Assembly (NCBI GenBank): GCA_008632985.1
Contig: QPGO01000041.1
Span: 496,001-522,901, forward strand
Length of the DNA: 26,901 nt
Origin: Psammoneis japonica
Lineage: Eukaryota
Direction of reading: 5' to 3'
In this document: piece by piece, positions 1-26,901 of the stretch
Numbering within the stretch: position 1 is the stretch's first letter
How the letters are laid out: every line of letters begins with the position of its first letter
Translations under genes and position numbers: made by a program
Notes under the pieces: generated by a model
What the model was told of the DNA's origin: nothing
What the model saw: the letters and a program-made list of their open reading frames with translations, nothing else
Database searches by the model: none

Positions 1-2
1 TG

Positions 3-839: not shown

Positions 840-1696
840 GCCACTGAGCTATTTGGTTGCATGGTTACTGCATTGGCAACAGGAAGCAGTGTTATGTTAC
901 TATGATGGACGTTAAATTCTTCTCTCAGGGTTGCCTCAAGATAATTCTTCCAGAAGACGTCATAGTCTAAGTTGTTAGGAAAGCAAATGTATTGCATGTC
1001 GCATTGGATAGAGTTGACGCACTCTCTGTTTCACACAATGAAATTTGCAGGATGGACAAAACACATTTTTATGCTAAAACGATGATTCGTGTCTTTGCCA
1101 CATGCCCCAAGAAGTTGTTCTTGGATGCACACTGGAATGTGTCTCTGGCCGAGCACCCATGCTTGTGCATGGTGTTGTGTTGCAGTCTGCTTTCTTTGAT
1201 GGGAGAACAGTGCCACAGCCCCTCCCACCTGCAGAAAGGGAAGGGGAGCCAACATCACTCATTGGTTTCACACCACCTGTAAACAACCCAGCTTGAAGAT
1301 TTGGGCTGGTGGTTGGAGTGAATGATGGGGGGCAGAAAATTGTGCAGAAATTGTTGTGCAAACAGACGGGTGCCAGCAATGACACCCACCACCTCTGGGC
1401 TCCAGGTGCTGCCTGTGCATTTGAGCCCTTTTGATGACTTTGAAATGGGGTGACATTTGAGGGTTGCACTGGATTTTTTGACACCTGTTTGCCATCTAAA
1501 AAGAGTTGCCCTATGTTGGCACCAAAGTGATCCAAGAAATGAGGCTCACAAATTTGACAGCAATCGTGTGCTGTCAGTGTCACAATGAGAAAGTGGCTGG
1601 AAAAGTTTGTGCAAATTCAAACAGTGACATTAAATGAGCTGACAAGCTGGTGTCATTTTGGTGCCACCTTTTCTCAAAAAGGAAAAAAAATGATTT

Positions 1697-2422
1697 GTGT
1701 CAATGCAGTGCTCTTTCTTTTGGGGGTGCAGCATTTGCAAGAAAAACCATTGCAATGGTGACAGGCAAATGAGGCAGAAGCAAAGGGGGTGCAAGGAGCA
1801 GCATTGGTGGCAGGTCAAAGAAGGGGAAAAATGCAAGGAAGCCAATGTTGCAAATCACCCTCCCCAGCCACCACTGCCAGAAGAAGTGCCAACACCAATG
1901 CCAACATGTGACAATGATGCTGACAACCAAGAAGAAGACTTGTTTGAGATTGAAGAGGCTGGCATCACTTTGGACTCCATGTTGGAAGACAGAGATGAAC
2001 TGCCAAACCAGCTCTGTTGCTCAGACACAAGAGAATTGCAATCACCAGCTGCTTCAAAGTTCTTGGTGCACCAGAGAATGAAAACTCAGGGAAAGTTCAC
2101 AACAGGATGGTTTCTGCAATCAGAAACATGCTCAAGCTTCCTGAGGGCGCTGATGTCACTCCTGTCTTTTATGCCCTTTTGGGGTGCCAACAAAAGAGCA
2201 TGCTGCATGATGGAGAACACAGGATCATTGCATGCAGCAATTCACACAGCAACAGGAGGGCTTCAGCCAATGAGCGTGGAGGGTGGTCAGATTGCTGCAG
2301 ACACACAAGAAGATGAACTCAGCTCTTCTCAAAGCCAGCATGCTGTCAACCATCATTGCAGAGAATTGGGTGAACAAGACAGTGTGACAAAGTCAGATGT
2401 CTTTTCATTTGTGAGGCAATGA
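1697..2422 (+). pseudogene. Possible degenerate gene remnant of unknown function
   Basis: Pro-rich and acidic protein-like stretch (HPPQPPLPEEVPTP...DNDADNQEEDLFEIEE). No Tyr and excess Cys/His/Gln. ORF length alone is uninformative in TA-depleted DNA. Confidence 0.25.
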
Positions 2423-2804
2423 AAGCCAAAATTGTCAAATTGAAACCACAAGCCAAGGAAATTGTGACTCTTTTCACACTTCTTGCGGATCGACATTGCG
2501 TCCTGTCGAACCGTCTTCTGATGACATCGCGGTGTGCTCTTTCTCAAACGCAATGATTGTGAGTCGTCACAAAAAAAATCTGTGCTGTGCAGCAACCTCC
2601 ACCAGCCACAAACAAAAAGAAAAAAGCGCAACATCTCAGATCAAAACAAACGTCATTCAAAAAATGGCGAACATGACAATCATCCGTCCATTGTAAAACA
2701 ATGAGAAAGTGCAACTGCAACAACACAAAAAATGTGCAGATCAGGTTACAAAACTGTTTTGAAGCCACGCCACCCACTGATCAGCAGGGGAGCCCTGCAG
2801 CAGC

Positions 2805-3321
2805 CCAATTCCTTGCAGGATGACAAAATGCCAAAGACGTGCTCAAGTCCAAAAAAACTCTTCAGGCGAAGCATGTGGTCAAAGATCTGACCTTGCACAC
2901 AAGGATTTTGCAGCGCTCTGTCATTCCCCAGCTTCTTGACTTCCACCATGCCTGTGAGACTTCCTCCCATGCCAACTGTCCAAATGTCAGGCTGAAGGTC
3001 AAAAATGCTTGGCTCGTTGAAACACTTGACTTGACCCTGCAGACCTGCAGTGTAAATGACCAACTGCAAAATTTGCTTCACGAGACCTTGAACATCGCTT
3101 TCAATCCCCCAATTGTTTGATTCACCATTGATTTCATGGCCAAGCCATAGATGCGAGTTGTCCTGTCCACACAGACTTTCGTCCAGAAGCACTCGGAAGT
3201 CACGCTCAACCATCAAGGCATCGTCGTGCTTCTCCTTTGAAACGCTGCCTTTCGATTTCGACCCCGAGCGCCTGCCGAGAGGCGGAACACCATCCTGAAA
3301 GAATGTTTTCATTGTTGCCAA
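2805..3321 (-). pseudogene. Truncated pseudogene of a PD-(D/E)xK restriction-endonuclease-fold protein (Crinkler-associated type)
   Basis: FDLQPDIW...GMVEVKK...GQIFDHM...VFGILSSCKE matches a PD...ExK...Q(IFD)Y...GILS(S/T)Y pattern with the Tyr positions reading His/Cys. Resemblance stops abruptly near 2805. Confidence 0.65.
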
Positions 3322-6300
3322 AGGATGAACTCAGCTTTGCTTTCAGCTCAGACAGGTCAGTGAGGCCGTCGTGCCAGCCAGTCTGTCTGTCCATCAGTGC
3401 GTTTTCAGTTTTCTCTGGAGACCCACCCAGTTTACAACAACCCAAAACTTGTGATCACTTGAGGAGTTTTCCCTGGCTTGAAGAACACATGAAATTGAAG
3501 GGAAAATTGTGACCTGGGTTCATTGGGATTGAGAAAGGATTCCAATCTTGTGCCATGTCAGCACAACCTGGATTTGCAGGCAACCTAAAATGCTTTGGGA
3601 GGGGGGGGGGGGACTCAGGACACGTTTCAACTTTCTCCCTTTCTGAGAACAAAGTGGCACAGATGCAACATTCTTGCCAACAGCTGTCAACATGTGGAAA
3701 ACCCAAAGGAGCTGTCATCAACCATTGTGTGGTTTGAAGTGACCAACGCTGATGTCATCTTGCAGACAGCAGCAGCCACCGCTGCACCAGTCAGCAGAGC
3801 AAGGAAAATGATGCAAGGGCTGTTGTTGGTTGGCTTGACTCTGTCTGCCAAAGGACAGACATCCAATGTTTCCTGTTTGTTGCTTGACTGGCTCATGCTC
3901 CTGCAGGCTCAAGTTCAAGAAACATGCTGGCGTGTCATTCATCTCAATGGAAAAATCTTCAACATCCACGATTTGGGACAATTTCATGCACGCCAAATTG
4001 CAGCCTTTTTGGCAAACATTTGGCCCATCATCTGTCCATCACATCATGGATTTTCATGACCCCTCAACCTTTTTCACCCCAACACAGCATGGCACAATGG
4101 TGCTGTTACACCGTCACAATTTTGAGCACAATGGAAGGTGAGGCATTGGTTGCTGACAATTGCGTTGGTCTTTTTTGATGCTCCAAAGGCTTGAAGAATG
4201 TGTCGTTGGTGAACAATGCCCCACCTTCTTTTGTCATGAAAATGCCATCTCTTTTTTGCCGTGGTTGCACCACATGTCAAGCATTGCACAATCTTGCAAG
4301 CAATGACAAGGTGTGCACATCTCTGTGTGATTCAAGTGCTCGACATTTGATTTTCCAATTTTCTCAGAGTGTTGCAATCTCAACCGATTCCATGGCATTT
4401 GACACCCACTGACTCACTTGGGCAGAAGTTTCACTCTCAACATTGGGTGGAACATCACCACATTCTTTGAAATCATCCTCTTCTTCAACCTCTTCTTCAG
4501 ATGAGGACTCAGCTGCCAGCACAGTTGTCATGGTGAAGAACAGTGCTCTGCGCTTCAGCGTTGGAGGCAGAAATGAAATTCTCACACTGCACGTAATTTC
4601 AGCACTGAAACATGCACAAAAAAAAAAAACAGCAAAAAATGCACAGGCCAACTCACATGCACAAAATGGGGTTGATGTGGTGGCCCTTTATGCCAGTCTG
4701 TTTCTTGAACTTGAGCCCACATGACTGGCTGTCACCAATGCCTCCATCAGCTAAAATGGTCATTCTTTGTTGTCATTGCAGCAACAACTGGCAGACAGTC
4801 AAAGGAAGCAACCCTCCCACCCACCCTGGGAGCCCACATGGCTGCCAGGATCCCAGCCAGTGACTGAGTCTGGAGCTTGAGCTTTGCAGATGGACCTCTG
4901 CCACCAACCAGTTTGGAGCTTGAGCCAGCAAGCTGTGTGGTTTGAATTGGCAACCCCCCACCCCCCATGACAAAAAACTTGTTGGTCAGCACAGGTGACA
5001 TTGACATGTTCATTGCATGGCAGGTGCACTGCAACATGTGGTGTGTGTGGTGATTGCATCAGGCAGATGGGTGGGTGTTCACTGCCTGTTAACATCAGGG
5101 CACGCATGCATCATCTGTTGGGTCAGGCATGCTGTGGTGGATTTTGTGCATGGCTGTGGGTGCTCAACATTGCCAACTGTTGTTGCAAATCTGAAAAAAT
5201 TGACAACAATGAACCCCAAAGACACACCAGCACCAACTGACAGTGTGGTGGCAGAGGGCACTGCCCATTGCCAGTGCATCTGATGCACCTGCCACTTCAG
5301 CAACAATGACATGGCTGTTGCTGCCGCACAGACAATGCATGTTGCAGCTGCCCCAGCCATGCAAAGGCACAGCCAAGGTCATTGCCCACAAGGATGGCCT
5401 CATTCTGCTTGTCCTGTGGAACCAAGTGAAGGAGTTTGGGGAATCAACCTTCTTCTAAAGCACAACTGTGCAATGGTCAAAAAGAGATGGAAAAAATGCA
5501 AAGTCTGGGGTTGCTGGCAATGTCGTTCCACTTGTTGCGTGCAATCAAACAGGTGAAATTGGAGGAGTGGGGCAACCTGCTTCTGAATCACAACTGTGCA
5601 ATGGCAGAAAGGAATGGGTGCAAGCATTTGGAAGCTCCTGCCATTCCAGTGTCTGTCAGTCAAAAAATGCATGTGAAACCAGGTGCACCCAGTGAGCCAC
5701 CAAAGGACATGGTGTGTTGGTGCTGGTGCCATGAAGAGCATCAAGAATTGCACACTGATGACAATGATGAGAAAATGAAGGGGGTAAAAAGGAGGCACCC
5801 ACAAAGGGGCAGAGAAGCTCCTGAAGGCCCCCAGCCAGCACAACAGCCCAGCCCGTGTTGGCCTGAACAGGTGTGACTTAAAGTTTGTGGAAGATGCAGA
5901 AGGCAAGCTGCATTGATGGTGCCAGAATCATCTTCATTTGAGGAAGGCAAGGGCAAAACCTTCAGTGTCACAAGTGGGCACCCCAGAAAACTGAGTGAGG
6001 CATTTGATCAGAAGCAGATGCCCCATCTTTGGGCACACATTGCAGCAAATCTTCAGCTGAGTTGGTGCATGTCATTGCTGTCGAAGGTTTGTTGTCTCAC
6101 CACATGTTGCTCAAGCACAGCAAGGAGTCACAGAGGGGGCAAGGTGGTGGGCATCAGGGTCTTTTTGATGCAAACCCAGTGCACTTTGCTCAAGACCTGT
6201 GGTGGAACACTTGCTTTGAAGGTCTCAAAGAGCATGACACATTTTGCTTTTTGTGCTTTGTGGAGGTCATTGTGGCTGCCTCCCACCCTTTGAGAGCTTT

Positions 6301-7753
6301 GAAGTTGGCAGCTGAGTCATTGGATTGGATCTTGATGTCAGCTGCCTGAGGAACAAGGGCAAAATCATTGGTGCACACCGGGTGCCACAAGTCCAGCACC
6401 ACAGAGGAGCCCCCCAGCAGTGGTTTGTAGCCACAGTCAGATCAGCTCCATCCAGACAAGCAGCTGTTTGTTCCCTGCCTTTGAAGACAACAGCATTTTG
6501 ATGCAGCATGTTAACACTTGCCCTCTGGAGTTGCTTTTTGGGCCCAAACTTTGTTTTGAGGCTTTGAGTCTCAGCAACTTTCTTGGATGCCCCCAGTCCA
6601 CCAAAAATCAAGACAAAGGAAGCCTTTTCTGCTTGAACAGTTTGACAGGAGCAATGATGAAGCTGGATTGTCAACGTCAGACAGAGGCACACAGCCCAAG
6701 CAAAATGGAACAAGCAATCAAAGGAAACATGAAAAAACATGAGCACTGCAGGTCCTGTCGTGTTGGTCTGTTGATCGGCACAGGCTTGCTTTGGCACATG
6801 CGGTCTGTCCATCAGCATGTCCAAGCTGTGGTGAAAAGTGCAGGCCTTTGGATCAGTTGAATTGGCAAAAGCACCAGGGCTTTGCCAGGCTGGCATTTGG
6901 CGAGTGCCTTCTGGAGGTCATTGGCAGCATGGTGCATGGGGGCAGCATTTGATGTGTGCTGTCAGGTTGTTGGTGATGATGGGAGCAGCAGGTGCTTGCA
7001 TGGTGGGTGGAGCTGTTTGACAAGTTCCACACCATCAGGAGCAAGGGATGCAGCAGGAAGGGAAGAAGCAACTCAAGTGCAGGTGGCAGAGAGGTTGTTG
7101 TTGACATTGGCAGCAATTTGGGTGGAGTGAATGCAGGATGAGCTGTCAAAGTCAGGGGGCTCCTCAGACAGTGTCAGACACATCTGGGATGGGAACAGAA
7201 TGTGACTCATCACAGAGGGTGCACATGGAGCCATTGTGGAAGAGAAAAAATGTTGTGTGATGGTTGTTGAAATCCAAATGTTGGAGTCCTTGGGGCTTGG
7301 GCAGAGGATGAGGGATTCAAAAGAAAGAGAAGCTTGAAAAAAGGTTCTGAAAAGATGTCTTCCAGGGTCAAGGTGGGTCATCGGCACAGTCAAAGGACTG
7401 GGAAGAACTGACAGTTCATTGGATGAGGTGGTGAAGAGTGAGGACAACTTGAAAGCAGGAGGAAGGAGGCAATTCATGCCAAATGGAGGCACGGAAAGGT
7501 GGTGGTGGTGTGGAAGGGCCAGCAAATGGATGGAGTCATTGAAGGGAAGCTGTCCATTCAGACAGCTCTTGGCATGGGCAGGATGATGCAATGAGTTGGA
7601 TGTTGGTGGCCATGCCAGGTGCATGGTGGGTGTTGCAAATGTGAGTGTGCAGGCAGGTGTCTCAAAGGCATGTCTTTTTGGTGGTGCATTGACGGTGACG
7701 GCATGGGTGCAGATTGTGTTGCTGGAAGAAAGAGTCGGGCATGGATCACAAGC

Positions 7754-7770
7754 TGCAATCTTTGTGCACA
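7754..7770. repeat. Left 17-bp target-site duplication of the non-LTR retrotransposon (TGCAATCTTTGTGCACA)
   Basis: Exact copy at 18447-18463; the two copies bracket ORF1 and ORF2. Confidence 0.9.
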
Positions 7771-7896
7771 AAAAAAACCAAATCAATTGTTTTAAGTGCT
7801 GTTGCACCTTTGCCCAGCAACACCGGCTCCGGCCAACCCACACTTCCAGTGCACCCCACTTGGAGGTGTGGCAGAAGTGCATGCAATTAGCCTGAA

Positions 7897-10769
7897 TCAG
7901 CATCTCCCGGAGGAGAACGCCCAATGGAAATAACTGGCAATGGTGCATGTGCTACAAGTCACTGGCCTCTTGACTTCCTTGAGGCTTTCCTTGAGTCTGG
8001 GATCTGGGCTTGATCACAGAAATCCAATTTTGTGTGCATGTTGCAGCAAAGGTCTCATGTTCTGCCACGGAATCAAGCAGAACATCTCAGTCTTTTGCCA
8101 AGTGTTCCTGACATTTGTTGCACACAGCTGTCAGTTCGGCCTCCACTTTGCATCTCTGAGAAGATTGTCTGGTTTCTACATCATGGCCGTGGACGTGCTT
8201 GTTGTGCTCTTCCCCCACAATTCCCGCCATTGTTGCCAGACAAACGTTCCCATCTGTGCTGTCCAGTTTGGTGGTTGTTTGTTCTCCTCCTGGCACTGAC
8301 AAAGGATCCCAGAATCTTGCAGTTGTCCAGATTGATTGACATTTTCCACAGAGAGGAATGCCTTCTGCTAAACACTTGCCCCCACCCCACGTTGGATTGA
8401 GCTTGCCACAGAACTCTGCATCTGCAATCAATGTCTTCAAGATGCGCCATCTTGCTGTTAAACCATGCTTCAATGGACTGCAACAAGAAATCCCGAAGGG
8501 TTGGCATGTTGTTGATTCGGTCACAATGCCTCCTTAGACCTTGTAGAAACTTTCTGTGCCATGGTTTGTCATGCGGACAGTGGAGCATGTGGTCCCCATC
8601 TTCCATGGGATGCTCACAATGAAGACACTGGTGAGGTCTTGCTGAATTGCAATGGCGGATGATCTCATTAGTGAGGAGAAGATCGTGAACCAGCTTGACT
8701 GTTCCAACGTGTTGCTTGGAATGATGTTTTATGAGGAAGGCATGAGCATCCCAATCCATCAGCTCCGTCACCTCTGGACTCCACTGACTGCATTCAACAA
8801 TGCACTGCAGCAGCTGTGGGGCGGTGGCCGCATGTCTGACATGATGTTCACAACCTGCGGTCAACGTGCCATCTGGAAGACTCAAACACGAGTGACAGTT
8901 TGGAAAGGGCAGCACCATTGTGGCATCCCAAGGGTGCTGGCCTTGGCATGCCCCTGCCAATCGATCCGCTCGGACGTTTGCTCTAGCATTGAGGGGCAGG
9001 GCATGAATTGGAGCATGCCAATCTTGATGGCCCTTCACTCATTTGACTGGCAGTGGCTGTGTGAAAGAGCCAGTTACAAATGTCCTCTCCATCTCAAGCC
9101 GAGTGTGCAGTGTCTCATCAATGACATCCCAGTCAGGAGACATGCTGTTGGCTCCAGGATGTCTGACATGAAAATCTCTTGTTTCATCCAATTGTTCCTC
9201 TGAGATTGGAGCTGGAAGGATTGTGGTGAGTTGATCAAGACAAGACACCAAAGCTTTGTTGTCACAGTGTGATTCCATCTCTGGAAGCTGTTCCACTCTG
9301 CAATGTTCCATGAACCAGCAAATGAATTGAAGGAGGGACAAAATGCCACAAGCCTCTGCCCGGCATGACGACGGTCTTCTGCCAAAGACTGGTCCTGCAC
9401 AATCCACCAGTGGTGCACCGTCCAGGGTGATTGTCTACCCAAAGGCAGCTCCATCTTTGATGGATCCATCACTGCCAGCTGTTAACTTTGATGACACAAA
9501 ACATTGGATTGGCATTTGCGGTGGTGAGTGAAAGTCCAGTTGGTCAAACAACTTCTCTTTCCACTGGCCCAGCAAGTGCAGTTTGTCTTGGAACATGTCT
9601 GGGATCCTGGAGCTCAGGAAGTCTGATGATGAAGTGTGGGGCAGAGCAAATGCCCATCAACCATCTTCTGTTGTTGACAGTTCTGCCGGAAAAGACTCTT
9701 CAGACGGGGCCGGAACTGTCTCCAACTCTGTGACAGAGTTGGTCCTCATGCCATTCACTTGAAAAATTTGACATCCGTTGGTTGATCTAACACACAGTTG
9801 CTCTTCAGAAGGAGAGAAGTGTGCTGAGGCTTGCATGCACATCTGAGATGGAGGCACTGACCAATTGCCAAGAGGTTCCTTGAGAGTGTGTGATGCCGAA
9901 GACACAGAGAGGCACAGAACTTGCGCCACGTGGTCCAGGCTCTTGTTCCTGGTTTTTGCTGTTCAACGTTGTTCAAGGAGCTGGAGTTGCTCTGAAGCAA
10001 CGGGTCTCCTGCTGTTTTCGTAGCCTCCAATGTCAAGCCATCTGCAAGAGCAATGTCAGACACTGACAACACCTGAACATGCAGTCGACAGCAATTCATC
10101 CATCTGACTTCTCTGTGAGAGAAGAGTTGGGACTGGAGCACAATGTCCATGATGCACTGATTGTCATCACGTTGAAGGGAAAAATGCCGGAATGAGTCAA
10201 ATGTGCTTTTCCTTGAATTCTGTGTGGAGAAAAACATGAACGGAGGCAAACCAACAAGATTCCACATGCGGGAGTTCTGCACCTGCATCCCACAGAAAGC
10301 TTTCTCCGGTTTCTGAGTTCAGTTGGATCCATGACACTGCAATGTGCAGCAGTTTGTGTGGTTGATCCTCTCCCAGATTTAATTTGGTGACTCCTCTGGA
10401 ATGCTTCAGTGACATTTGCAGTTGAGCAACGCCTTGCTCTGCATCCAATGATCGAAAACCTCTGCCTCCCAGGGCTTGGGGACCGCACAAGATGAATCTT
10501 TTTGCACTTTGATTGCACCCACATTTGGCAAAAATAATTCCCATGGCTTTCTGTTGAACTGCAAGCAACTCTTTGGGAAGGAAGGTTGAGTTTGGAAAAA
10601 TGCAAGTCATCGAAGAAAGGCAGCAAGCGTGGTGGCATCTCCATGTTTCAATGTGATTGAAGTGACAGGATCTAAGGAAGAGGGCCGCAGCATCACTCTT
10701 GTGTTGGAGTTTCTTCAATTGGGTCTTCTGGGAACCGATTGGAGCCATGCAGTGTCCAAGAGTTTTGTG
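7897..10769 (-). pseudogene. ORF2 3' half: RT C-terminal region, RNase H and CCHC zinc knuckle
   Basis: HKTLGHCMAP; SDGSIKDGAAFG (~9470); PSSCRAEACG (=SSYRAEAYG); CDNKALV; VKGHQD...NVRADRLA; CLHCEHPMEDGDHMLHC; QSNVGWGQVF; terminal TIASYF then TGA at 7897-7899. Confidence 0.85.
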
Positions 10770-10774
10770 CAGTG

Positions 10775-10853
10775 TGTTGTGGCACATGTGCTTGCATGTC
10801 ACCAGTGTGAACAACGGTTGGATGTGCAATCGCCCTTTTGTGTGCACATGACA
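10775..10853 (+). repeat. 5' LTR of the TRIM (79 bp, TGTTG...TGACA)
   Basis: 70/79 identical to 13461-13539 without gaps; all differences are transitions. Confidence 0.92.
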
Positions 10854-10863
10854 GGTTATGAGC
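10854..10863 (+). promoter_or_regulatory. Primer-binding site GGTTATGAGC (complement of the initiator tRNA-Met anticodon arm; half-tRNA priming as in Ty5/copia)
   Basis: Directly abuts the 5' LTR; complementary to GCUCAUAACC of tRNAiMet. Confidence 0.85.
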
Positions 10864-11146
10864 ATTGATTCGCTTGCCTCTGTGGCACAGCCCCGAGCCC
10901 AGGGAGTCGCCTCAAAATTGTTGAAACTACGACTCAAATTGAAATGCTTCATTCTTGTATAATTTTGTGACATTTTGCAATGTCCGCACAACGACACAGT
11001 CAGCGAATTGGACTGCACAAAATTCAGTCTATTGCCCACAACACACACACGCGATGAACAATTGCAATCGAGAAACGGATGGGTTCTCTCACACAATTTT
11101 TTAGTTTTCGATAACAAGAAAGTCATTGCAGCGTTTATCGCCAAAT

Positions 11147-11316
11147 AACTTTCAACAACTTTTTGTTGAAAGTCGTCAACTTTCAACAACTTTTTGTTGA
11201 AAGTCGTTAACTTTCAACACTTTTTTGTTGAAAGACGCAACTTTCAACAACTTTTTGTTGAAAGACGCAACTTTCAACAACTTTTTGTTGAAAGACGTAA
11301 CTTTCAACAACTTTCA
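11147..11316. repeat. Tandem array of five full plus one partial 30-31-bp hairpin units (AACTTTCAACAACTTTTTGTTGAAAGACGC)
   Basis: Direct reading; each unit contains the inverted pair CTTTCAACA / TGTTGAAAG. Confidence 0.95.
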
Positions 11317-11408
11317 ATCAACAATTCACAACGGCGGCACGAAAATCTGATTGGACAAGCGACGTCATCTAAGACATCCACGAAACACATTGCCGACACA
11401 GGGGCCCT

Positions 11409-11430
11409 CTGCAGTGGGGCCCCACTGCAG
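11409..11430. repeat. Perfect 22-bp palindrome CTGCAGTGGGGCCCCACTGCAG
   Basis: Equals its own reverse complement. Confidence 0.9.
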
Positions 11431-11870
11431 CATCGGCAGTGGAATTCCCACTTTGGAACTTTGCGCAGCAGCCAACACAATGAAGCGAGCCGACGGTGTC
11501 CCACTTTACGGCGTGATGTCTCAATGACGCTTAAACCGCATTCCCCGTTTCTTTTTTCATAATTGGGAAAAAATGCACAATGCATCCCACTGGGTTGGTC
11601 CCATTGTGTGTCATTGAGAATTGTGGATTTCTGTTTTGTTTGAAACCTCGAAGCAATTTCGAATTTGGAAAAGCGTGCACGAAGGATGCAGGTTGGTGCC
11701 ACACGTGGTGCGCAAGATGCAGCATGTTGGGACTCAGACTCGGAACTGGAAGGTGGTTCACTGCGCGGTTCAGCTTTGATTGGTGCGCACCGGCGCATCA
11801 GAAGGCGGCTCACTTGGAGCCATCGAAGGTGCTCCACTGCTGGGGACAACTAATTTCAAGAAATGAAGAA

Positions 11871-11998
11871 TTCTGAAACTGCTGCTGACGAATGTTCTGA
11901 AACTGCCATTGTGCACTCTGAAACTGCCTCCACAAACTTTGAAACCAGCACCATAAATTGTTAAACTGCTAAAACCACTGAACCAGCACTGAACTGCT
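11871..11998. repeat. Degenerate ~21-bp tandem repeat with core CTGAAACTGC
   Basis: ttctgaaactgc, ttctgaaactgc, ctctgaaactgc, tttgaaaccagc, gttaaactgc, ctgaaccagc, ctgaactgc in succession. Confidence 0.7.
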
Positions 11999-12545
11999 AG
12001 GCCAACTTCAAGCCGCTCTTGGTGGTGTTGGCAAGGCATGCATGGCTCCAGCTGTTCTCGTCACGATCTTTGACTTTTGTGTCACCCGACTGGATTGCAA
12101 CCCCAAAAACAATGTTGTCAGTGACCCTGACACGTGTCTCCTCCTTATGGACAAACGGTTCACCCTCCACTGGCACCCAATGTGGCTTGAGACAGCCATC
12201 CTCTTTGGAGTGGTAACGGCCAGTAAGCTTGAGAGGCGCTGGGAATCGCAAGATGAAATGTCAGCATCCACGACCGTGTTTCTCGTCTTCACGGAGTTTG
12301 GTGGTCAGCTTGCTGTGCGGTGTTTCCGTCTGGTGGCATGCATCACACAGCACCTTTGCGTTATGGTGAAAGCGCTCGCATTCGTGGTGGTGCGAGTGGG
12401 GTGCGGACGGCACCGTCATGAGGATGTCAGAGTCAGAAACCACCTGGGCCTCACACTTGTTCTCAAAAAAGTCCCCAGCATGTGCCGCCAAGCAGACAAT
12501 CTCAAAACCACCCTGGTGAACCTTGTTGTCCGTCTTAGGATGAAA
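11997..12545 (-). pseudogene. Passenger gene fragment (~180 codons, unknown function) inside the TIR element
   Basis: ORF-track entries 12261..12752 and 11997..12251 are in the same frame, split only by a TGA at 12261-12263 (probable CGA->TGA). Sequence looks globular (GGFEIVCLAAHAGDFFENKCEAQVVSDSDILMTVP...HFILRFPAPLKL...IVFGVAI). The 5' end runs into the second array. Confidence 0.5.
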
Positions 12546-12549
12546 GAGC

Positions 12550-16500: not shown

Positions 16501-16650
16501 ATGGCAGTGGAGGGAGGGGCGTGACATCTTCCTGACAACAACTGGGTCCACTGCTGTGCAGTGGGATTAACTGCAGACGAAGGGGCATCACCCCTCATTC
16601 GGAGGCCGCGCTTCCTTGAAGGAAGGCTTTTGAAGACTTGCGTCTGCATC
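13545..16650 (-). pseudogene. ORF2 5' half: apurinic-like endonuclease (APE) and reverse transcriptase
   Basis: APE: RLCAFNTNG, DVTGISET, PGGT, DPLGRW, ILAGNFN, GSRHLDC, LDHRAHFVDFD. RT: KEPGNNKMHRLRVIH, DDDFTSCFD, LCGTGQGSGN, GCADDT (=YADD, ~13823-13839), QLWCDLL...LESPKC. Upstream boundary approximate. Confidence 0.88.
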
Positions 16651-16689
16651 ATGCAGTGGAGGCAGGTGAGACAACTGGGCCTGCCTCAA

Positions 16690-18372
16690 AGAAAATCTGA
16701 GTCATCCGTGTCTGTCACAGTTGCATCCCTGGGAGGATGATGAGAGGAGGGGGCTGCAGGGACCAACACAGCTTGCTTCTTGCGCTGAGGAGAAACTGGT
16801 GTGTTTGGAACCACAGATGCAAACGTCTCTTGAATCGTCGTTTGCAGCTGGGCTGTGAGAGTGGTTTGTAATTGTGTGGCCACTGCTTGCTGTGACTGGG
16901 TGGACAGCGCCGCAATTGATTCTTGGTGCTTCCGTTCTAGGGCTGCAAAACGTTTTTCTTGTTCTTGTTGGTTTTGACAAACAAGCTGTTGTAATTTGGC
17001 GATTTACGCAGACTGGTTCATCACATCCGACATGGGGATGGCACCAGGGATGACTGCTCCAGGCTCATTCTGCAACACCTGGGAATGCATGGGAAAACCT
17101 GCATTCACTCCGACACTTTTTGGGACTGGAGGACCTTTGGATTCTGTTGATTGAGGAGGAGCGATGGAAGCTGCTGGAGAAATGTCTGAAATGTCTAGAG
17201 ACGCCCAACTCTGAATGCTTGTGGAAGAGATGGATTGAACCCTGTCTGACATGTCATCACCAATGCCAGGGATCATGGGTTTGGGTTGGGCATCAGGGAT
17301 GCCTGCCTCTGCTGCAATGGCTTCAAACCACTCTGGAAGATGTTCTGCAATGCAGTGCTTGGCTTGATGGAACAAATCCTTGTCCACAAGAATGTCGCAC
17401 CTCTGGACAATGGATGGTTTCTTCAATGGGACCACGTCCAGGACTCCTGGCACCTCTTTAATTGCACCTGTCAGGCAAAAAGTGGGCTTCAATGTGATGC
17501 AATGCCGGTGTGATGTGGGTCTTGGCACTCGTTTTATGTTGTTTGTGGGTTGCTTTGTCAAAAGCTTCTGGTTGCAAATGACACCAGCGGGACAAGACCA
17601 ACACAAGAGGATGTTCTTTCAACACCTCCAATGAGGCGTGAATCACATCTTTTGCTTGATCATGGGGAGTTTCGATGGCATGGAAATTAGTCTGAAGAGA
17701 TTGATCTGCCAGTGATGAAGCCGACTGAACTGCCAACCTGACAGGCAATTTCAAGCGGCTGCGTTGAGGGAGAAGGACCATTGACAATTTTTGAGCCACA
17801 TCTTTGGGGCAATGCTTTGGGAGTGGGTCAACAAGTGGAGCCACTTGTGCCAAATCAACGATGGTCTCGTCCCAGTGGTGGTGGTGCATGTGGGTGCCAT
17901 TGTCTTTCAATGCTTTGTTGATGAAAGGGACATTCCTGACATTGGCAATTGACAAGGATGTGCGGATTCTGTGTGCAATGACAAACATTGGAGAACAACG
18001 GCGTGATCCACCCATGCAGTGCATGACGAAATGTTGAGAATGAGTGAGACCGGAAGTCAACTCGACAACGTTGATTTTGGGTGTTTTAAGACCACGGTTC
18101 AACACAATTGTCATCTGATTCATCAACGGATCTTGTGAGGCTTTCTGTTGGAGAGCATTGAGGATTGTGGCATGACCCATGGCTGACACCGTGGATGTGT
18201 TGTCGTCCGATGAGGTCAATTCAAAATGGACGGCAATCTCTTTGAGCATGGTGCTTTTGGGTTTTCCGGATCCAGCTCTGGTGGGAGTGGGTGGAGCATC
18301 ATCAACATCAGGTGGTGGATCTGGCTGAGGGTCACCGGCATGGCTGGCCTGTGGCAGCAGAGGATTTGTCAT
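16690..18372 (-). pseudogene. ORF1 of the non-LTR retrotransposon (frameshifted)
   Basis: Long protein-like overlapping frames (MTNPLLPQASH... from 18372; 17004..17606; 16686..16883) between the element 5' end and the APE domain. Confidence 0.65.
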
Positions 18373-18446
18373 GGTGACAAGTTTTCGGCACAAATTTTGT
18401 GCAGAATTCCAAGCAGAAACCATCAACAGGAACTTACACAGAAAAG

Positions 18447-18463
18447 TGCAATCTTTGTGCACA
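18447..18463. repeat. Right 17-bp target-site duplication of the non-LTR retrotransposon
   Basis: Identical to 7754-7770. Confidence 0.9.
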
Positions 18464-19484
18464 GAGGACAGATGTGCACACAAAAGCTTGGGAACTTGGG
18501 TCAGAGGGGTGTTGGTTGAAAGCCAAAAAGAGCAGCCCTCAAAAGGGTGTGACCAATTCACAACCCTCAACGGGGTGCGTGTGCCAATGGGCTCCATTTC
18601 TGAATGATTGTGGGTGGAGTGCAGCAGGGTCTTGATTTAGTTTGGCAGCACCACAGGCCAGTTTGTTCTGTTCCTTGAGGTCTGCAATGCACCATGCATG
18701 CAACCGCAATTGATTGATGAAGTGAGGCATGCAACAGCACACAATTGACACACAACAGAAGCTTGATTGACATGACTGAAGCACACATCACTGTGTGTCC
18801 TTGTGCGCAAGATGTTTGCACAAGTGAGGTGAAAAAAGGGAACATGTTGATCAAAAAGCTGACTGTGTGTTGACAAGACTTTCATGTAAAAAATGCAAAG
18901 GAGCCTGACATGTTTCAAAACAATGCTGTTCTGTGACATGGAAAGTTTTCACAGCGAAAAGTGTGCCAGATGATCACAGGACATCAGAGGCAGCAATGCA
19001 GTGGTTTCCACTTTCCTTTGTAAAATTTTGAGTGTGCATTGTTAAAATTGTCAACAAGCAGAACTTAAAAAATGCCAGCAAAAGTGCTTGACAAAATGAA
19101 ACTGTTTTTTGCATTTTATCTGATGTCTCGTTAACTTTTCTTGCACAAGCTTCAATCAAATGCATGTGATGTTTATTTAAATTAGGATCAAAATCTATTT
19201 TTTGTTGTGCATGGTTTGGTTTCCTTTTGATCGTACACAATCAATTTGAACTTGGTTTTAACTTTGTCCTCCTCACTCACGTGTGTGTGTCTTTGCACGT
19301 GTGCAGTCTGCAGCACTTCACGCACGCACGTGACCCACCTTCATTTTTCTTCACTTTTGCACAGCCCGTTGGTCTACGGCATTTTCAGCACATGTTTGCA
19401 TGTGCAATTTTCCACACATTTCACAACAGTGCACCCTCACCCCAAAGTTTGAAAAACGAGAGCGCGTGCTGTTATGATTCACGT

Positions 19485-20266
19485 GGATCTGTTGCGACAA
19501 TTCTTGAGAATCGACGATTCTTGAGAATCAGAGACCGAATCTTGTGAAAATCGATTCTTGAGAATCGGAGCTCGTGCCACGAATTGGAATCTTGTGAAAA
19601 GGGAATTCTTGTGAAAAATCTGTCACATGAATCCAAAGTCAAAATGGCGATCATTGTCGACGAGAAGTCAATCAACAGTCCCAACAATCAACCATGTGTT
19701 GCATCTTAATGGCTCACATGTTAATGAATCGAAAAATCTGAGAAGAGTTGGCTTCTTCATTGCTTTTTTGGTTGAAAGAGCACAACAACAACATCGGCGC
19801 ACGAGTGTTTTGACGGTTTTTTCGACTCCAGAGCGGCTTTCAAAGCACAGTGAGACTCTCACAAGTGTTGCAAACTAAGTGATGTCGAACAAGGTTGAAG
19901 CATTTATCGCAATGTCTTGAATGGTGTCGCTTCTTGCGTTGAAGACGCCATTGTCGTTCACAGCTTCGAAGTCGGTGCGAAAATCGCTTTACACTCACAT
20001 GCATTCTTCAATGATTGAATGTGCGTGACGTTGTAATTTTAAATTAGTGAATGCATGACACACTGGGAGTTTTCATGAGAATCAGTGACAGCTGTTCTCA
20101 AGAATCGAACTTCGATTCTTAAGAAAACAGGACGGCGGAACTTGTGAATCGTCCGTTGAGCACGCACGTCGAGCTAGAATTTTGCGTTCAACGGAAATCA
20201 GATTCTTAAGAATCGGCACCCGGATTCTTGAGAATCGGTTTTCACAACTTTCATCGTGACAGATCC
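19485..20266. mobile_element. 782-bp MITE-like TIR element with subterminal palindromic repeats
   Basis: TIR GGATCTGTTGCGA (19485-19497) versus GGATCTGTCACGA (reverse complement of 20254-20266). Flanks CGT / CAT (3-bp TSD with one transition). GATTCTT(A/G)AGAATC copies near both ends and CTTGTGAAAA repeats. Confidence 0.8.
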
Positions 20267-20511
20267 CATTGACTGGATTCGTCTCTCAGAAATTTGGAGC
20301 AGATTTCTGCGCAATTGGCACAACACGTCACCAAGTTGAAGTTCATTTTGTTGGCGGGAAAACAAAAAGCATGAGAATTATCACGCACCCGGTCGCTCGA
20401 CGATGATGCTCACCATTTTCCCAAAACCCATGACTTTTCATGTTGCGGCACAGAGCGACCTTCTACAAACATCAGTGAAGCCCCCTCTACCCCGCAACAT
20501 AAAAAATCACA

Positions 20512-23500
20512 ATGAGCGACGTCAGAAATTCATTCGTTGCCAAGCACGTGCAACTCGTCTTCGGGGACAAGCGTCTTCATAACTGTTGGATGCCGGTGGA
20601 CCTCTGGGCGGAACATTGCAATGCTAAATTTGGTTTTTCCAATGAGGATCTCCGTGTGATGGGCAGAGAGATAAAGAAGACACACAAAAACCAAGCTGGA
20701 GTGTCAAACGTGACAACAACAAACAACATTGTCGGCGATGGCGTGAGTCTGCACAAGACAGAATGCAGTTGTCAGATTGATGGCAAACGAGGAAACCACA
20801 CATTCTTTCATGTTGCTGCTGGGGTTCCCAGCCGATTTCTTTGTCCTCCAACAACTGGGAATGACAGTGTTGAAGCTTGGCTGCAAAGTGGGGCAGTCCG
20901 GAAGCAAATTGGGAGAGACTCAGTGCGACGAGCAGAAATGCTCACAGAGCATTCGGAGACGGATCCCGACATCCAGAACACGGAGAAGGCACGGCAAGCA
21001 AAGAAAAAGCAACGCACTTCAAATGAAAATGAAAATGACAACATGTCCATTGAAGATTTGGAGTCCGCCAGGCAAGACAATCTGCCACGATTCGACTGTT
21101 GGGATTCTACCTGAGCCCGTCGCATCTTTGCTCCGCCCTCTGTTTGCCCATCTGATGTTAATGTAAAGGCGGCTGCACAAGATGGAATCAACATTCTATC
21201 AGCTGTTGTCAACCATGCCCAAGGATGCAAATCTGTGTTGCCTGATCAGGATGACAACAATGTGACTGCCGACTGTGAGAAGGTTGCCATGAGGCATCGT
21301 GCGCTGTGCATCATGGTGGCGCTTCAGACGGCGCTTGACAATCTCAAAGGCGAAGGAAATGAGATTGAAGGCAACATGAGTTGGGGTGAGTGTTGTCAAC
21401 ATGCTGTCACTGGACTGAAAGAAGATGGCATCACGGCTGTGTCCAACTGGCAGACGGTTCAGCGGTGGCATCGTCGTTTGGCCGACGCCGGTGATCACTT
21501 TCCTCAAAGCCACAACCGAGGCAAACAACAGCTTCCATCCTTCTTCAGCGAGAATCCTGAGGTTAAGAATGCTTTTGCTCAACATGCAATCAAAAACTTG
21601 AAGGAACTGTTGGTCGAATTGATGCACGAGCACCTCCACCAAAAAATCACACCGGCTCTCATGCTAAATGCAAAGAAAGACGTCGTGATGGTGGATGACG
21701 AAGACTTTGAACAAGCTGTGGATTCTGTGGGTGAGTCTCCCGCGCTTAGTGCAGAAGAGGAAGCTGCTGAGGAAGAAACCAAGAGTTTGTTTCTTAAACA
21801 GCATAAACTCCGTTCACTTTCTATTTCCACAACAGCACGCTGGATGCGTCTCCTGGGATTTAGACACACAAACAGAATCAAAGGATTTTGTGTCGATGGT
21901 CACAAGAAGCCCGCCACAAAGTCGTGTCGCAAGAAGTTTACAAAGGAGCATCTTGAGTTGGAGAAGAGGTGCTGCCGGTGGATTCAATTGCCCTTGGACG
22001 AGGCGACCGAGCTCATGAACCAATCATTGGTTCCGCGTCGGGGTGAAAGCTCTGCATTCACTCGTGATGGTAATGTGTTTGTCGAGTTTCATGTGGACGA
22101 CTACAGCGGTTTCCGTGATGTGATTGCGCAATCGGACGACTTGAATGCAAGGCAGCATGACGGCTGTCTGAGTTTCCGCTTTCCCACTGGTGAAAAGCCT
22201 GTTGTCATGTGGGGACAAGATGAGGCCATCTACAAACAGTTCCTGTTGAGTAAGAAGGTGTGGGTGGGACCCAATGGCAAGACGGCTCTTGTCCCGAAAG
22301 ACGAAGGTCCAGGTGCCATGCTGTCTCTGTTCACATCTCGCAAGTTTGGTTTGTTGCGTGAGCTCGACAAGGAGCTGCTCAAGCAAGTCAATGAAAAGAG
22401 AAGTGGAACCAAGTGCAGTGACGAGGAAGCAGCAAAGGAAGCCAGGAAATCAAGCAACAAGAAGGACTTGGAGAAGAGCCCATTCCTGGTGAAATTCGAG
22501 TGCGGCTCCAACGACGAAGGCTGTTGGAACTACAATCACATGGTGACACAGTTGGAAGACTGTGTTGATGTGTTGGATGAAATGTGTCCAGAATTTGAGC
22601 ACGCATTTTTCTTTGATCACTCGGCAGGCCATGCGAAGCAGAGGGAGGACGGCTTGTCGGTTAACAAGATGAACCTGGGCTGGGGTGGGAAATACAAAAT
22701 GAGAGCAAGCAGGCTCACAGACAAATGCATTGGACAGCATGACAATGCTCACAGATTGCAAAGTGGTGAGACACAAGCAATGGCATTCCAGGAGGAAGAC
22801 GAAGGGCCTCACCTTGTGGCTCCGGAAGAACGACAGCAACGAAAGCACGACATCGTGACGAGCGAAATCAAGACCATTGACAAGCTCAGAGAAGAGCTAG
22901 AAAATGATCTGAAGCAAAATGATGCAAGCTGTGCGGTTCTCAAGGGTACAACCAAAAAGGATTTGCAAGATGATTGCGAAAAAGCCGGCATTCCTACAAA
23001 GAAGACCGTTCCGAAGATGGTGCCTGGTTGGGTGGGCAAGCCCAAAGGATTGCTGCAAGTCTTGATTGAACGTGGTTTGATTGATGCAAGCCCAAAACAT
23101 GGAAAGGGAGGGAAAAGGACAAGCATGGGAACTGCAAGGAAAATGCTGAGCCCGCAGAACTGCTTGCCTCCTGCAAAGATTTCGCGAATGAAACAACGCA
23201 ACTTCAGCATCATGCGAAGCTGCTTGGGGGTCCGAGTAATCTTGACTCCAGAATGCCATGCCGAATTGGCGGGAGAAGGCACAGAACATCTCTGGGCATG
23301 CTCCAAGGGTCAGTGTTGAAACCTCAACCTGTCACAGAAACGAGGGAAAGACAATTTCAAAAAATCAGTTGATTGTTGCTCATCGGAGGAGGTGTTGACA
23401 CTTGAACGCATTCGCAAGTTTGCCAAACGCACAAGACAGTGCATTCAAGCTTGCCATGTCATTGACAATGGATGCGTGGAGGACACAGAGAGGGTCCGCG

Positions 23501-23643
23501 AATTTGGACCTGTTGCGCTTGACAAGATGATCAAGACGTTCAAGACGCACCGATGTGCTCTTGATTTTGAGTTCAAGTTCGTTCGCTGCGTTGCGGAGAA
23601 CGAGGTTGCAGCGAATGAGGTTGCAGCTGCGATCTTGGAGTGA
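20512..23643 (+). pseudogene. Large IS630/Tc1/mariner-like DDE transposase pseudogene (~1040 codons)
   Basis: ORFs 20512..21114, 21235..23319 and 23392..23643 share one frame, broken by TGA at 21112 and 23317, with a probable compensated frameshift at ~23100-23225. Motifs: CVDGH, WGQDEAIYKQF, PKDEG, EGCWNYNHM, FFFDHSAGH, MNLGWGG, GKPKGLLQVLIERG, TPECHAELAGEGTEHLWACSK, FKTHRCALDF. No TIRs identified. Confidence 0.8.
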
Positions 23644-24065: not shown

Positions 24066-25310
24066 CATTGTTGTAATCGCGTGTGTCAGAGTTTTGCATC
24101 CAGAATCATCATAAGTTGCCATAAATTACACTGTCCAAACAAGGCATGTACAAAAAGAGGTTCGTTGGTTTTTGACACATTTGCTGACAACACATCCGTC
24201 TTCTCCAATTTCTGTGTCCAGACCCAGAAAGACTGCAGGCGGTGCTTGTTCCTGCAGCTCTCAGAATCACACATGTGAAAAGTTCTTTACCATGTATGAC
24301 ACTCTTCAAAGAAGGCACGCACAAAAAGAGCTTCATTTGTTTTTGATGTGTTCACTTATGTTGCATCCATCTTCTCCAACTTCTGTGTCCAGATCCAGAA
24401 AGACTGCAGAGGCAGAGAGTGGGGAGGCAACCCATTGGAGGTTGCCTGAGTTGTTGGGCTCATTTTTAAAGGCTTCCCAAGTCTCTCCGCTGTTTGTGGT
24501 CAAGAGCAGCAGGGGGGGTCGACTGCAACAACCACAGCAGCTGCCAATTCCATGTCGATGGGTCGGGAACCGGCAGCAGAAGCTCCCGAATCGGCGGCGG
24601 CGGCGGATGCACCTGCAAGTCTACATTGAGGTTTCAATTGGTTGCTGTTGTTGTCCCACACACTCTCACAAAGTGTCACACATTTCTTTGCACTGAACAA
24701 GGTGGATCAGAGCAATGTTGCTTCACATGGTCCTGAATCGGCTTCGCGGGGTCGGGAACCGGCGGCAGAAGTGACCGAATTGGCCACGGCAGATGCACCA
24801 GCAAGTCCATGTTGCGGTTTCAATTGGTTGCTGTTGTTGTCCTGTACACTCTCACAAAGCATTTTGCACTTCTTTGCAATGAACAAGGTGGATCAGAGCA
24901 GTGTCACTTCACCTGGTCCGGAATCAGCGGCGCTGGACACACAGGCAAGTCTGCACATTGACGTCTCCATTGGTTGTGGTTGGTTCATCTTTGTTGTACT
25001 CTCACAATGTTTTCTGCACCGTTCGACAATGAACAAGGTGGCTGCCAGTGCTGGCAGTGGCTCTTCAAGAAAGAGAACTGCAGCAGCTGCTACAAACTCA
25101 CCTGCTCCAGAATCGGCGGTGCCGGATGCACCGGCAAGTCTATGTTGCTGTTCCTGTTGGTGGTGTTAGTTCATCCACATTGTACTCTCACAACGCATTC
25201 TGCACTTTTTTGGCAAATGACAAGGTGGCTGCAAGCAGTGGCACTTGAAGAAAGTGAGCTGCAACTGCTGCAGACTCCAGGGTGTTGTCTCCATCGGCGT
25301 CATTTAATTT
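24066..25310 (+). pseudogene. Intron-rich pseudogene with six predicted phase-0 introns and duplicated exon-intron modules (Ala/Ser/Pro-rich product)
   Basis: Predicted introns 24144-24221, 24315-24392, 24615-24701, 24801-24887, 24945-25037 and 25134-25224. All begin GCA and end AG, most with CTCAC/CTGAC-like branch sites. Intervening exons of 93, 222, 99, 57 and 96 nt keep one frame. In-frame stops are TGA. Ends approximate. Confidence 0.65.
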
Positions 25311-26593
25311 AAATGTAAACAACAAAATAGAATGTTCATGGTGCAATGCAAATGATTTTAATTTACAGGTTTTGCAGGGACAGAGGGTGGGCACTCTCAC
25401 AGGGAAAACGTGCCCCTGTTTCATGGTGAAACATTTTTTCTCATGGGGAGGGGGGGTCTGATCCCACAGCATAAAAATGTCAATCTATCATGGTTGACAT
25501 GTCATTGCCAGCTACACAACTAATGAGGTTTGAAACCATAAAAAAATTGTCCATGAAAGGAACAAAAATCACAATGAAAAGATGTGTGATGATCACTGCA
25601 TTGCGCGCTCTGATGGAGAACGCACAGAGTGGCAAGCATGAGTGAAGAAGTTTTGAAGATGTGGCCTCTGCAATTGCAGCTGGGTCACAAGGGGAACTCA
25701 AGGAGTTTTGGAACGGTGGTGCACTCACCTGGGCCAACTGACATGACCACTTCCCCATGCCCAGCTCTGTCGTTTGCAGTTTTGGAGTGTTGTTGCGGCT
25801 TTTGTGAGATCCCAACGGTGACCAACATTAAAAGCAGAAGCTCTCACGTCTCCAACAATGTGTCTGCCAAGTCACCTGACTGTGCAGTTGGAGAGAACGA
25901 GAAATGGTGTTGTTCTCACTTTTGCTGTGCTTCGCCGTGTAAAAATCAACCCAGCACAATGATCCACGCCGTTTTCACGGCAAAATTGAGCCACATTTTC
26001 AAGTGCTGCATGATGAAGTCTACCTTTTTGTCACCCTTCCTGCTCTGTGTAAATTCCCTGTCATCCCTTGAGCAATGCCAGCAGTCCAACTCTTGCCCAT
26101 CATCGTCATCAAGGTCCAACTCGGCAAATCGACAGGTCACATTTCTGGCAAACGGCTCTTAGAACGACAGAGAAATTGAACCTGTGCAGTTTGTTGGCCC
26201 AAGAGCGCACGCGGCAAAATGGGGCTTGGTGGGATCCTTGGCTGTCACCTCAACCGCCATGGTCCATTTGGGCAATGAGGTTGGTTTTTCTAAAAATGTG
26301 GCACCTGCGTGATTTCCATGGCGTCCCCACCCACACCGGTGACAGCAGTTTCCATCCGCAAGCAAGTGAGCACGCACCAATGCGCAGATGTTCTTGTCTC
26401 ATTTTGTGCTGCACGAGGTGCGCATGTGACATCGCAAGTTCAACATGGGACTCGAACAAACGCGGTTGACAGTCGAGATGCAGTCCTGCAGCTGGCAGGA
26501 TGGATGAGACCTCGGAGGTTGGCAGCAACATGAATGGCAACAGAGGCAAACAGACGCTTTGTTCAAAGTCGTTGTCCAGAAAATTGCAACGAA

Positions 26594-26901
26594 TGTCATT
26601 GCTTCTGTTTGAATCGATTTTGTGATGAGCTGTTTGTTTTTGAAGAGAAAATCTGAGTCTGGGTTGCAGTCGTGAGATGCGACCAGAATGACGTTGAGTC
26701 GTGACTCTCCCTCTCAACCGAGAGAGCTTGCCAGCCCATGAGAGCCTTTCCAGCAGTGCAGAACTCATCGGTCCGCAGTCCCTTTGTGAACTGATTGGCC
26801 AGTTGCTCTAGAGTGCTGACAGGTTGGATGTCGATCTCCAATTGTTCGACTTTGGTCCTAAACCAGTGGTGCGGGACACCGATGTGTTTGGTTCGCGGAG
26901 A
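26594..26901 (-). mobile_element. 3' end of a Ty1/copia (CoDi-like) LTR retrotransposon: RNase H C-terminus, PPT and probable short 3' LTR
   Basis: SPRTKHIGVPHHWFR...QLANQFTKGL...KALMGW (26731-26901), next codon CAA where the stop is expected, PPT GAGAGGGAG (26707-26715). LTR extent (~26594-26706) is tentative. The element continues beyond the window. Confidence 0.85.

Follow-up and report, generated by a model that had tools for sequence, protein, structure and literature searches.

The question raised by this locus, a stretch of 26,901 nucleotides of contig QPGO01000041.1 from Psammoneis japonica (the whole of which we call the window), is why the dinucleotide TA (TpA) has almost disappeared beyond the first kilobase, and what kind of process could have removed it. 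A preliminary description, made from the letters alone, had proposed a repeat-associated mutation process in which TpA becomes TpG or CpA. Dinucleotide counts revealed only 275 TA in the whole window, an observed/expected ratio (o/e) of 0.15, with CA at 1.64, TG at 1.60 and CG at 0.50. The effect is confined to a TpA-erased, CA/TG-rich and CpG-poor block of nested elements at 1076–26901, which is defined by its composition and by read-derived contigs and extends past the end of the window. Within 1081–26901 the o/e of TA was 0.13 (232 against 1729 expected), that of CG 0.48 (720 against 1496 expected) and that of CA and TG together 1.64 (5283 against 3220 expected; CpA by itself 1.66). All 16 NTAN contexts were depleted, with ratios between 0.01 (ATAT) and 0.34 (TTAA), while the remaining 12 dinucleotides shifted by at most 0.11 between the block and the gene that flanks it; the ratios of AA, GA, AT and TT were unchanged, and the GC content of the block (0.48) was the same as that of the flank. 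Both strands are affected alike, as the TG/CA skew per kilobase stayed within ±0.19 throughout.

The loss is most extreme at 1081–7790, where 21 TA remain in 6710 nucleotides (TA o/e 0.05; CG 0.19; CA+TG 1.80) and where a Pfam search of the frames gave no match, so that the element or elements there are unclassified. This part contains two runs free of TA, from 6512 to 7793 (1281 nucleotides) and from 5090 to 5456 (366 nucleotides), in agreement with the TA-free stretches that had been read by eye at 6514–7792 and 5092–5455. At the TA rate of the flank (about 4%), we calculate that a TA-free run of 1281 nucleotides would arise by chance with a probability of about e^-52. The flank itself (1–1075) has 43 TA, 14 of them within the untranslated sequence at 840–1075, a TA o/e of 0.58 and a CG o/e of 0.87; the five TA that had been counted in 241–300 lie at 243, 247, 249, 270 and 292. 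Past the edge, the first TA are found at 1280, 1497, 1512, 1631 and 2170, and CpG density falls at the same place, since densely spaced CpGs end with those at 1080 and 1088. The loss of TA and the loss of CpG therefore share one edge at 1075–1088.

This shared edge brings in the first alternative, i.e. that the block has undergone nothing but methyl-CpG decay. The CpG ratio of 0.48 is in its favour, and deamination of 5-methylcytosine (5mC) would cover the same block, respect the same boundary and leave the same products, TG and CA. However, it cannot remove TA, and the mass balance does not allow it to account for the gain: the deficits of TA (1497) and CG (776) sum to 2273, which roughly matches the excess of CA+TG of 2063 and agrees with a change of TA to TG and CA, but CpG decay by itself covers only about a third of the excess, as the preliminary description had anticipated in holding that 5mC decay alone was not enough. 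Moreover, TA is lost where CpG is not. At 18949–20502 the TA ratio was 0.22 with CG at 1.01 (1.05 over 19000–20500), and at 20512–23643, which had been picked out as rich in CpG and scarce in TA, we measured 0.73 for CG and 0.13 for TA.

An artefact of assembly, polishing or base calling, e.g. a misread modified base, would be another way to lose TA, since heavily modified DNA can yield systematic miscalls in long reads. The window was compared with k-mer contigs (Logan) of a public sequencing run (run X1; word depth about 200), which contains 0.89 of the sampled words of 1–10000. These read-derived contigs carry the TA-less sequence too: the contig on 4460–7107 matches the window except for 4 letters and 2 indels, and the contig on 1–2220 likewise departs from it at 4 letters. 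Run X1 differs from the window by about 0.2–0.35%, at sites that show the other letter only, and because of this difference it does not merely reproduce the same consensus. An artefact is further opposed by the normal flank gene on the same contig, by the coherence of the changes at the protein level and by a decay that is graded by nesting order (both below). Although run X1 may stem from the project that produced the assembly, which speaks for the artefact, we consider this explanation highly improbable. In the tally of differences between run and window, 149 of 177 were transitions. The 40 differences that are listed individually comprise 22 of the type CG<>TG/CA, 6 of the type TA<>TG/CA (TA in the window in 4, in the run in 2), 6 other transitions and 6 transversions; as they are only a part of the whole tally and include paralogous contigs, they show only that CpG and TpA sites both vary.

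The direction of change can be read from conserved residues in two of the elements of the block, a long interspersed nuclear element (LINE) and a transposon-like open reading frame (ORF) at 20503–23640. Six decayed frames contain 0.0–0.6% Tyr, 3.5–5.8% Cys and 3.5–7.5% His, against medians of 3.5%, 1.7% and 4.2% in relatives of the LINE. We scored columns of the transposon-like ORF in which at least 4 of 6 homologs agree, and columns of a piece of the LINE with at least 60% agreement among 149 homologs, one relative (P0057, described below) being left out. In the transposon-like ORF only 1 of 13 conserved Tyr was kept, the others having become Cys (6), His (3), Phe (2) or Leu (1), whereas 204 of 355 other residues were kept (Fisher p 3.6e-4 for Tyr against the rest). 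In the LINE 1 of 8 was kept, and the other seven had been replaced by His (3), Cys (2), Trp (1) or Phe (1) (p 8.6e-4). When both elements were pooled, 2 of 21 conserved Tyr were kept and 14 of 21 had changed to Cys or His, while the reverse changes were absent (His>Tyr 0/15, Cys>Tyr 0/8), which bears out the direction TA to TG/CA that had been proposed. In the flank gene, which serves as an internal control, 6 of 7 conserved Tyr columns and all 7 conserved Ile columns were unchanged, judged against 5 homologs.

The change is also specific for TpA. In the pooled elements, second-position A>G occurred in 8 of 21 cases at TpA (Tyr>Cys) and in 3 of 145 at other NpA (p 2e-6), where the control set consisted of Asn>Ser, Lys>Arg, Asp>Gly, Glu>Gly, His>Arg and Gln>Arg. 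First-position T>C occurred in 6 of 21 cases at TpA (Tyr>His) and in 3 of 82 at other TpN (p 0.002). Asn>Ser (0/21) and Lys>Arg (2/26) were rare, and the AA ratio was 1.23 in the block and 1.26 in the flank. Two outcomes that would have spoken against the preliminary proposal are thus absent, as A>G is far more frequent at TpA than elsewhere and intact relatives lack Cys at the sites concerned. The motif changes in the LINE, the transposase and the copia end that the preliminary description cites are present where it had placed them, and they differ in what they can tell. For EGYW>EGCW, Y stands in 6 of 6 homologs, and for LYGTGQG>LCGTGQG relatives do not already carry Cys (Y in 58, H in 29, F in 16 and C in 0 of 109). 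For GIEY>GTEH the homologs are divided (Y 2/4, F 2/4), and FEYG>FECG is a weak case, with Y in 1 of 6 homologs and L in 3.

These counts also bear on the possibility that selection keeps certain transposon families poor in TA. Loci related to the LINE, retrieved from metagenomes with a seed motif that contains Tyr or Phe, had TA ratios of 0.48–0.88 in 80 of 80 cases (median 0.68), a median CG of 0.95 and a median CA+TG of 1.16, so that low TA is not inherent to the LINE family. The normal Tyr content of the relatives, the loss of Tyr at conserved positions and the presence of in-frame stops argue against selected composition as well, and we give an origin by composition or by CpG decay alone next to no weight, less than any of the other alternatives. 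Among the 150 + 117 LINE relatives examined, P0057 (ENA; 359 aa, from a contig of 7.7 kb) was the sole one with the same footprint: it has 0.56% Tyr, 5.0% Cys and 5.3% His, and its motif is ICGAGQG at a position that is Y in relatives. This decayed copy belongs either to the same species or to a further host. Had the window come from B. natans, whose catalogue contains hundreds of such coding sequences, several relatives of this kind should have appeared.

The arrangement of the elements shows when the decay accumulates. In tblastn searches, full-length LINE relatives aligned on the minus strand over 16487–13475 and then over 10826–8021, i.e. on both sides of 10854–13446, from which it follows that one LINE has been split by an insertion of 2.6 kb. 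Its 3' half (7790–10826, minus strand) holds the C-terminal part of the reverse transcriptase (RT), an RNase H-like and zinc-knuckle region and the 3' end, as delimited by tblastn of P0012, P0013, P0019 and P0037 (TA 0.10, CG 0.31). Its 5' half (13475–18948, minus strand) was placed by homologs and holds the endonuclease and RT (13475–16487) and an upstream frame to 18948 (TA 0.08–0.10). The insert, a younger nested element, is flanked by a direct duplication of 93 nucleotides of LINE coding sequence (10761–10853 and 13447–13539, 84% alike, with 3 TG-versus-CA mismatches). It is considerably less decayed than its host, with TA at 0.30 against 0.10 and CG at 0.80 against 0.31–0.54. As the insert is necessarily younger than the LINE that it interrupts, the decay must accrue after insertion.

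This result weighs against a further alternative, i.e. that the retroelement RNA was edited from A to I by an ADAR-like enzyme before reverse transcription and integration. ADARs favour a 5' U, and the block is mostly derived from retroelements. ADAR hyperediting of repeat-derived dsRNA and APOBEC3 hypermutation of retroelements resemble what is seen here in that they are deaminase-type, context-biased and directed at selfish elements. However, they act on RNA or on one strand of cDNA before integration, whereas the block has changed on both strands of resident DNA, to an extent that grows with residence time. RNA editing would give A>G in the sense strand only, yet sense T>C (Tyr>His) and A>G (Tyr>Cys) occur at similar frequencies, in 6 and 8 cases, and the TG/CA skew is near zero. 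Nor would it affect the transposon-like ORF, which is not retroelement-like, as much as the LINE, or make the TA edge coincide with the edge of CpG decay. We therefore regard editing of RNA as very unlikely, if slightly less so than an artefact.

The process that remains shares several features with repeat-induced point mutation (RIP) of Neurospora and other fungi, i.e. transitions at the DNA level, repeated or mobile DNA as the target, sharp edges, action on both strands and a dinucleotide footprint; functionally, both would be genome defence by mutation. In its chemistry it is the opposite. RIP changes C to T at CpA, enriches TpA, lowers GC and creates stops, whereas the changes in the block destroy TpA, raise GC and erase TAA and TAG. 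Tested directly, the block lacks the RIP signature, as TpA is at 0.13, CpA at 1.66 and GC at 0.48 as in the flank. The association with repeats that had been suggested holds in so far as the loss is confined to a sharp-edged transposon block, but repeats as such are unsupported as the inducer.

The explanation that we favour, to which we assign a probability of roughly 0.8, is a TpA-specific mutation process that acts on the DNA of the block in situ. According to this explanation, 1076–26901 would be a stack of dead nested transposable elements (the split LINE, a transposase-like element and a copia end) in which the resident chromosomal DNA, once inserted, undergoes transitions on both strands that turn TpA into TpG or CpA. 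Such a process would affect the whole block, halt within about 15 nucleotides of the neighbouring gene, accumulate with residence time and approach saturation. Decay of CpG to TpG or CpA, the footprint of cytosine methylation, would occupy exactly the same domain, and because the two share one domain, the same silencing mark probably aims both. The signature, its direction, its specificity for TpA, its symmetry between strands, its boundary and its presence in reads are observed; the agent would be an enzyme directed by a silencing system that also brings cytosine methylation. Two comparisons suggest that methyl-CpG decay would be several-fold slower than the TA process. Segment by segment, TA has been lost to a greater extent than CpG (TA 0.13 and CG 0.73 at 20503–23640, next to the repeat at 18949–20502 in which CpG is intact), and the frame of 1046 codons at 20503–23640 has no frameshift yet is almost without Tyr.

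The change of TA to TG or CA never creates a stop codon and erases TAA and TAG, and would therefore inactivate elements by missense, i.e. Tyr>Cys/His and Ile>Val/Thr/Met, and leave ghost ORFs in all frames. On the plus strand of the block TGA outnumbers TAA and TAG by 692 to 147. In the window, 88 stop-to-stop frames reach 100 aa or more, distributed over all six frames, and these ghost frames are so many and so long because only TGA remains as a common stop. Gene finders would call such frames (Tyr 0–0.6%, Cys/His 3.5–7.5%) as genes.

As for the identity of the agent, our leading candidate, which we put forward tentatively and at slightly worse than even odds, is a DNA adenine deaminase descended from the deaminases of tRNA A34 (ADAT2/TadA). 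It would convert A to inosine, which pairs with C and is read as G. The substrate of the tRNA A34 deaminases, U33-A34, already has a context of the 5'-T type, and because this implies a 5'-T preference, an ADAT2/TadA-like enzyme would be an economical agent. The same in-situ process could instead be driven by something other than a deaminase, e.g. by a modified T (5-hydroxymethyluracil (5hmU) or J-type) that mispairs with G, by amination of T or by error-prone repair in silenced chromatin. The palindromic nature of TpA makes T>C fit as well as A>G, and dinoflagellates reportedly swap T for 5hmU preferentially at TpA. To our knowledge, 5hmU:A pairs are not strong mutagens, and ADAT2 is said to edit DNA in amphioxus. 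Mutagenesis at WA sites of the Pol eta type, which had been offered as a candidate alongside a deaminase, should deplete AA, but the AA ratio given above is the same in the block as in the flank, and we disfavour it. A further point against an agent other than a deaminase is that the chlorarachniophyte alga Bigelowiella natans has an ADAT2 homolog with DNA-editing residues, according to a preprint (bioRxiv 10.64898/2026.01.13.699255, Mettrop et al.). On balance we consider such an agent unlikely, though far less so than RNA editing or an artefact.

The same preprint describes a process in B. natans with which the block can be compared. In mutation-accumulation lines, two integrated viral regions mutated at about 6e-7 per site per generation, and 230 of 231 mutations in the viral regions were A>G or T>C, all of those at TpA (bioRxiv 10.64898/2026.01.13.699255). 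The genome contains 124 clusters of 1-kb windows that are poor in TpA and rich in CpA+TpG, as well as 324 TpA-poor coding sequences enriched in RT and DDE domains; the targets are integrated DNA of nucleocytoplasmic large DNA viruses (NCLDV) and virophages, and the proposed agent is an ADAT2-like DNA adenine deaminase (bioRxiv 10.64898/2026.01.13.699255). The two cases have in common A:T>G:C transitions at TpA only, on both strands, in foreign or mobile DNA, with loss of TpA and gain of CpA+TpG, and the process in the block is probably of the same kind, judging by the footprint. They differ in degree, in target and in company. Here TA is at 0.13 over at least 25.8 kb and at 0.00 over 1.28 kb, whereas in B. 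natans the NCLDV region is at 0.45 and the cut-off for clusters at 0.43; the targets here are transposons and there viruses; and CpG decay is co-extensive with TA loss here, whereas the preprint text mentions neither CpG nor tyrosine, stop codons or diatoms. In the literature we found no description of a TA>TG/CA signature outside B. natans, diatoms included, and a term search of a DNMT paper (PMC9998398) found no mention of B. natans.

Several points weigh against an in-situ TpA-specific process, or against parts of it. Run X1 possibly comes from the culture line of the assembly itself and is hence not fully independent. Among the 40 differences listed, TA sites were, per site, no more variable than CpG sites (4 and 12 of 40), and because of this an extreme current activity is not shown. 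The polarity was read from protein homologs at 27–44% identity rather than from a nucleotide alignment of sister copies, and as TpA is palindromic, A>G on one strand is indistinguishable from T>C on the other. The seed motif of the metagenome scan, in requiring Tyr or Phe, was biased against decayed copies. The likeness to the process in B. natans is one of signature, and the enzyme and the methylation are here candidates suggested by such footprints.

The frame of the LINE at 13863–17618 has 4 internal stops and then 1 frameshift, and a frame of 424 aa at 13866–15137 (minus strand) has 2256 relatives at E<=1e-3. Full-length relatives (about 1900–2100 aa) gave weak matches to Exo_endo_phos and RVT_1, which fits a divergent LINE with an endonuclease and a reverse transcriptase. 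Of 120 relatives only 3 are named, all of them from pennate diatoms (two from Fragilaria crotonensis and one from Cylindrotheca fusiformis), which is no more than a hint at the taxon, as transposon families can cross lineages. In the run X1 contigs the loose ends at 7790 are A-rich. The summed depth of run X1 rises to about 2400 at 7338–8004 and to 2000–2700 at 18677–20000, against about 200 elsewhere. The first of these peaks agrees with the LINE's 3' end, as is typical for 5'-truncated copies; the second is a high-copy repeat with normal CpG (1.0) and low TA (0.22). Contigs of another run (X2) cover only 1–985 and bits of 11541–11839; the kind of this run is a guess and nothing was concluded from it.

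At 93 nucleotides, the duplication that flanks the nested insert (10854–13446) is longer than target-site duplications usually are. The TG-versus-CA mismatches between its copies were considered as a test of polarity and dropped, since ancestral CG and ancestral TA give the same pattern. The insert also contains two direct tandem arrays of 30-nucleotide units, at 11147–11314 (5.5 copies) and 12564–12828 (8.8 copies), which bracket about 1.25 kb and could represent arrays at the two termini of a non-autonomous element; they offered no usable consensus TA sites.

The transposon-like ORF at 20503–23640 (plus strand) stays in a single frame for 1046 codons, interrupted by 2 internal TGA. Six homologs share 27–35% identity with it, and the TGA at 23317 stands at an Arg that they conserve, which makes this stop a CpG event, CGA>TGA. 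No Pfam family was found, only weak hints of HTH_33 and HTH_Tnp_Tc3_2, and the ORF may encode a putative transposase with helix-turn-helix and DDE domains. A profile search of the PDB was set aside, having returned only chance matches to centrin, and an AlphaFold model with a predicted local distance difference test (pLDDT) of 46 gave no classification. At 26251–26901 (minus strand; TA 0.08) the motifs HHWFR and MGWQ mark what we take to be the C-terminal end of a Ty1/copia-type Pol, with the sequence that follows it, running past the window; by Pfam only Retrotrans_gag appeared there, at E 0.039. Pfam searches of 22 and then 12 ORFs of the window gave no significant match, as decay has gone too far in these elements. 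A tandem duplication of 186 nucleotides lies at 24560–24925 (2 copies, 82% alike), and nearby repeat pairs are spaced at 171–189 nucleotides.

The unaffected flank (1–1075, plus strand) consists of a single-exon ORF at 3–839, which encodes a conserved hypothetical protein, and of downstream untranslated sequence. The 5 homologs of this protein (at least 278 aa) measure 249–340 aa and share 38–47% identity with it; the best match of nearly the same length is at 47%, and a database search found no near-identical protein on record, although the annotated genome of B. natans should have supplied one. Judged by this and by the LINE relatives, the host is likely to be a diatom or other ochrophyte, less likely to belong to another lineage, and improbably B. 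natans itself. The family of the flank protein is small and without a Pfam domain, and has invariant Cys, Asp and His positions.

What does the block add? Going by the 2026 preprint, the kind of process is not new, and the deaminase that the preliminary description had proposed had already been inferred, and in part demonstrated, for B. natans. The block is probably a second host lineage, with a footprint that is saturated, extends across transposons and coincides with methylation. We see an even chance that a TpA-specific, enzyme-driven defence, a mirror image of RIP that makes no stops, also runs to saturation on the transposons of a diatom or other non-chlorarachniophyte, at domains of cytosine methylation. 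Before the preprint on that one alga, cellular genome defence was not known to include targeted A:T>G:C hypermutation of DNA. With a second host, probably unrelated to the first, whose ordinary transposons carry a saturated footprint, the mechanism would become a general one, and the TpA process would be tied to the methylation-marked silent compartment. Further hosts, and the enzyme, could be sought by a genome-wide screen for TA o/e below about 0.3, CA+TG above about 1.5 and ghost ORFs poor in Tyr and rich in Cys and His; such Tyr-poor, Cys/His-rich "proteins" could also serve as a screen across databases, and long spurious ORFs from blocks of this kind contaminate gene catalogues. A natural editor of A to G that is specific for TA in double-stranded DNA would be of interest for base-editing work. 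If the proposal is true, it would suggest that SAR (stramenopile, alveolate and rhizarian) lineages have an ancient and widely distributed pathway of genome defence, and diatoms amenable to genetics could be used to dissect it.

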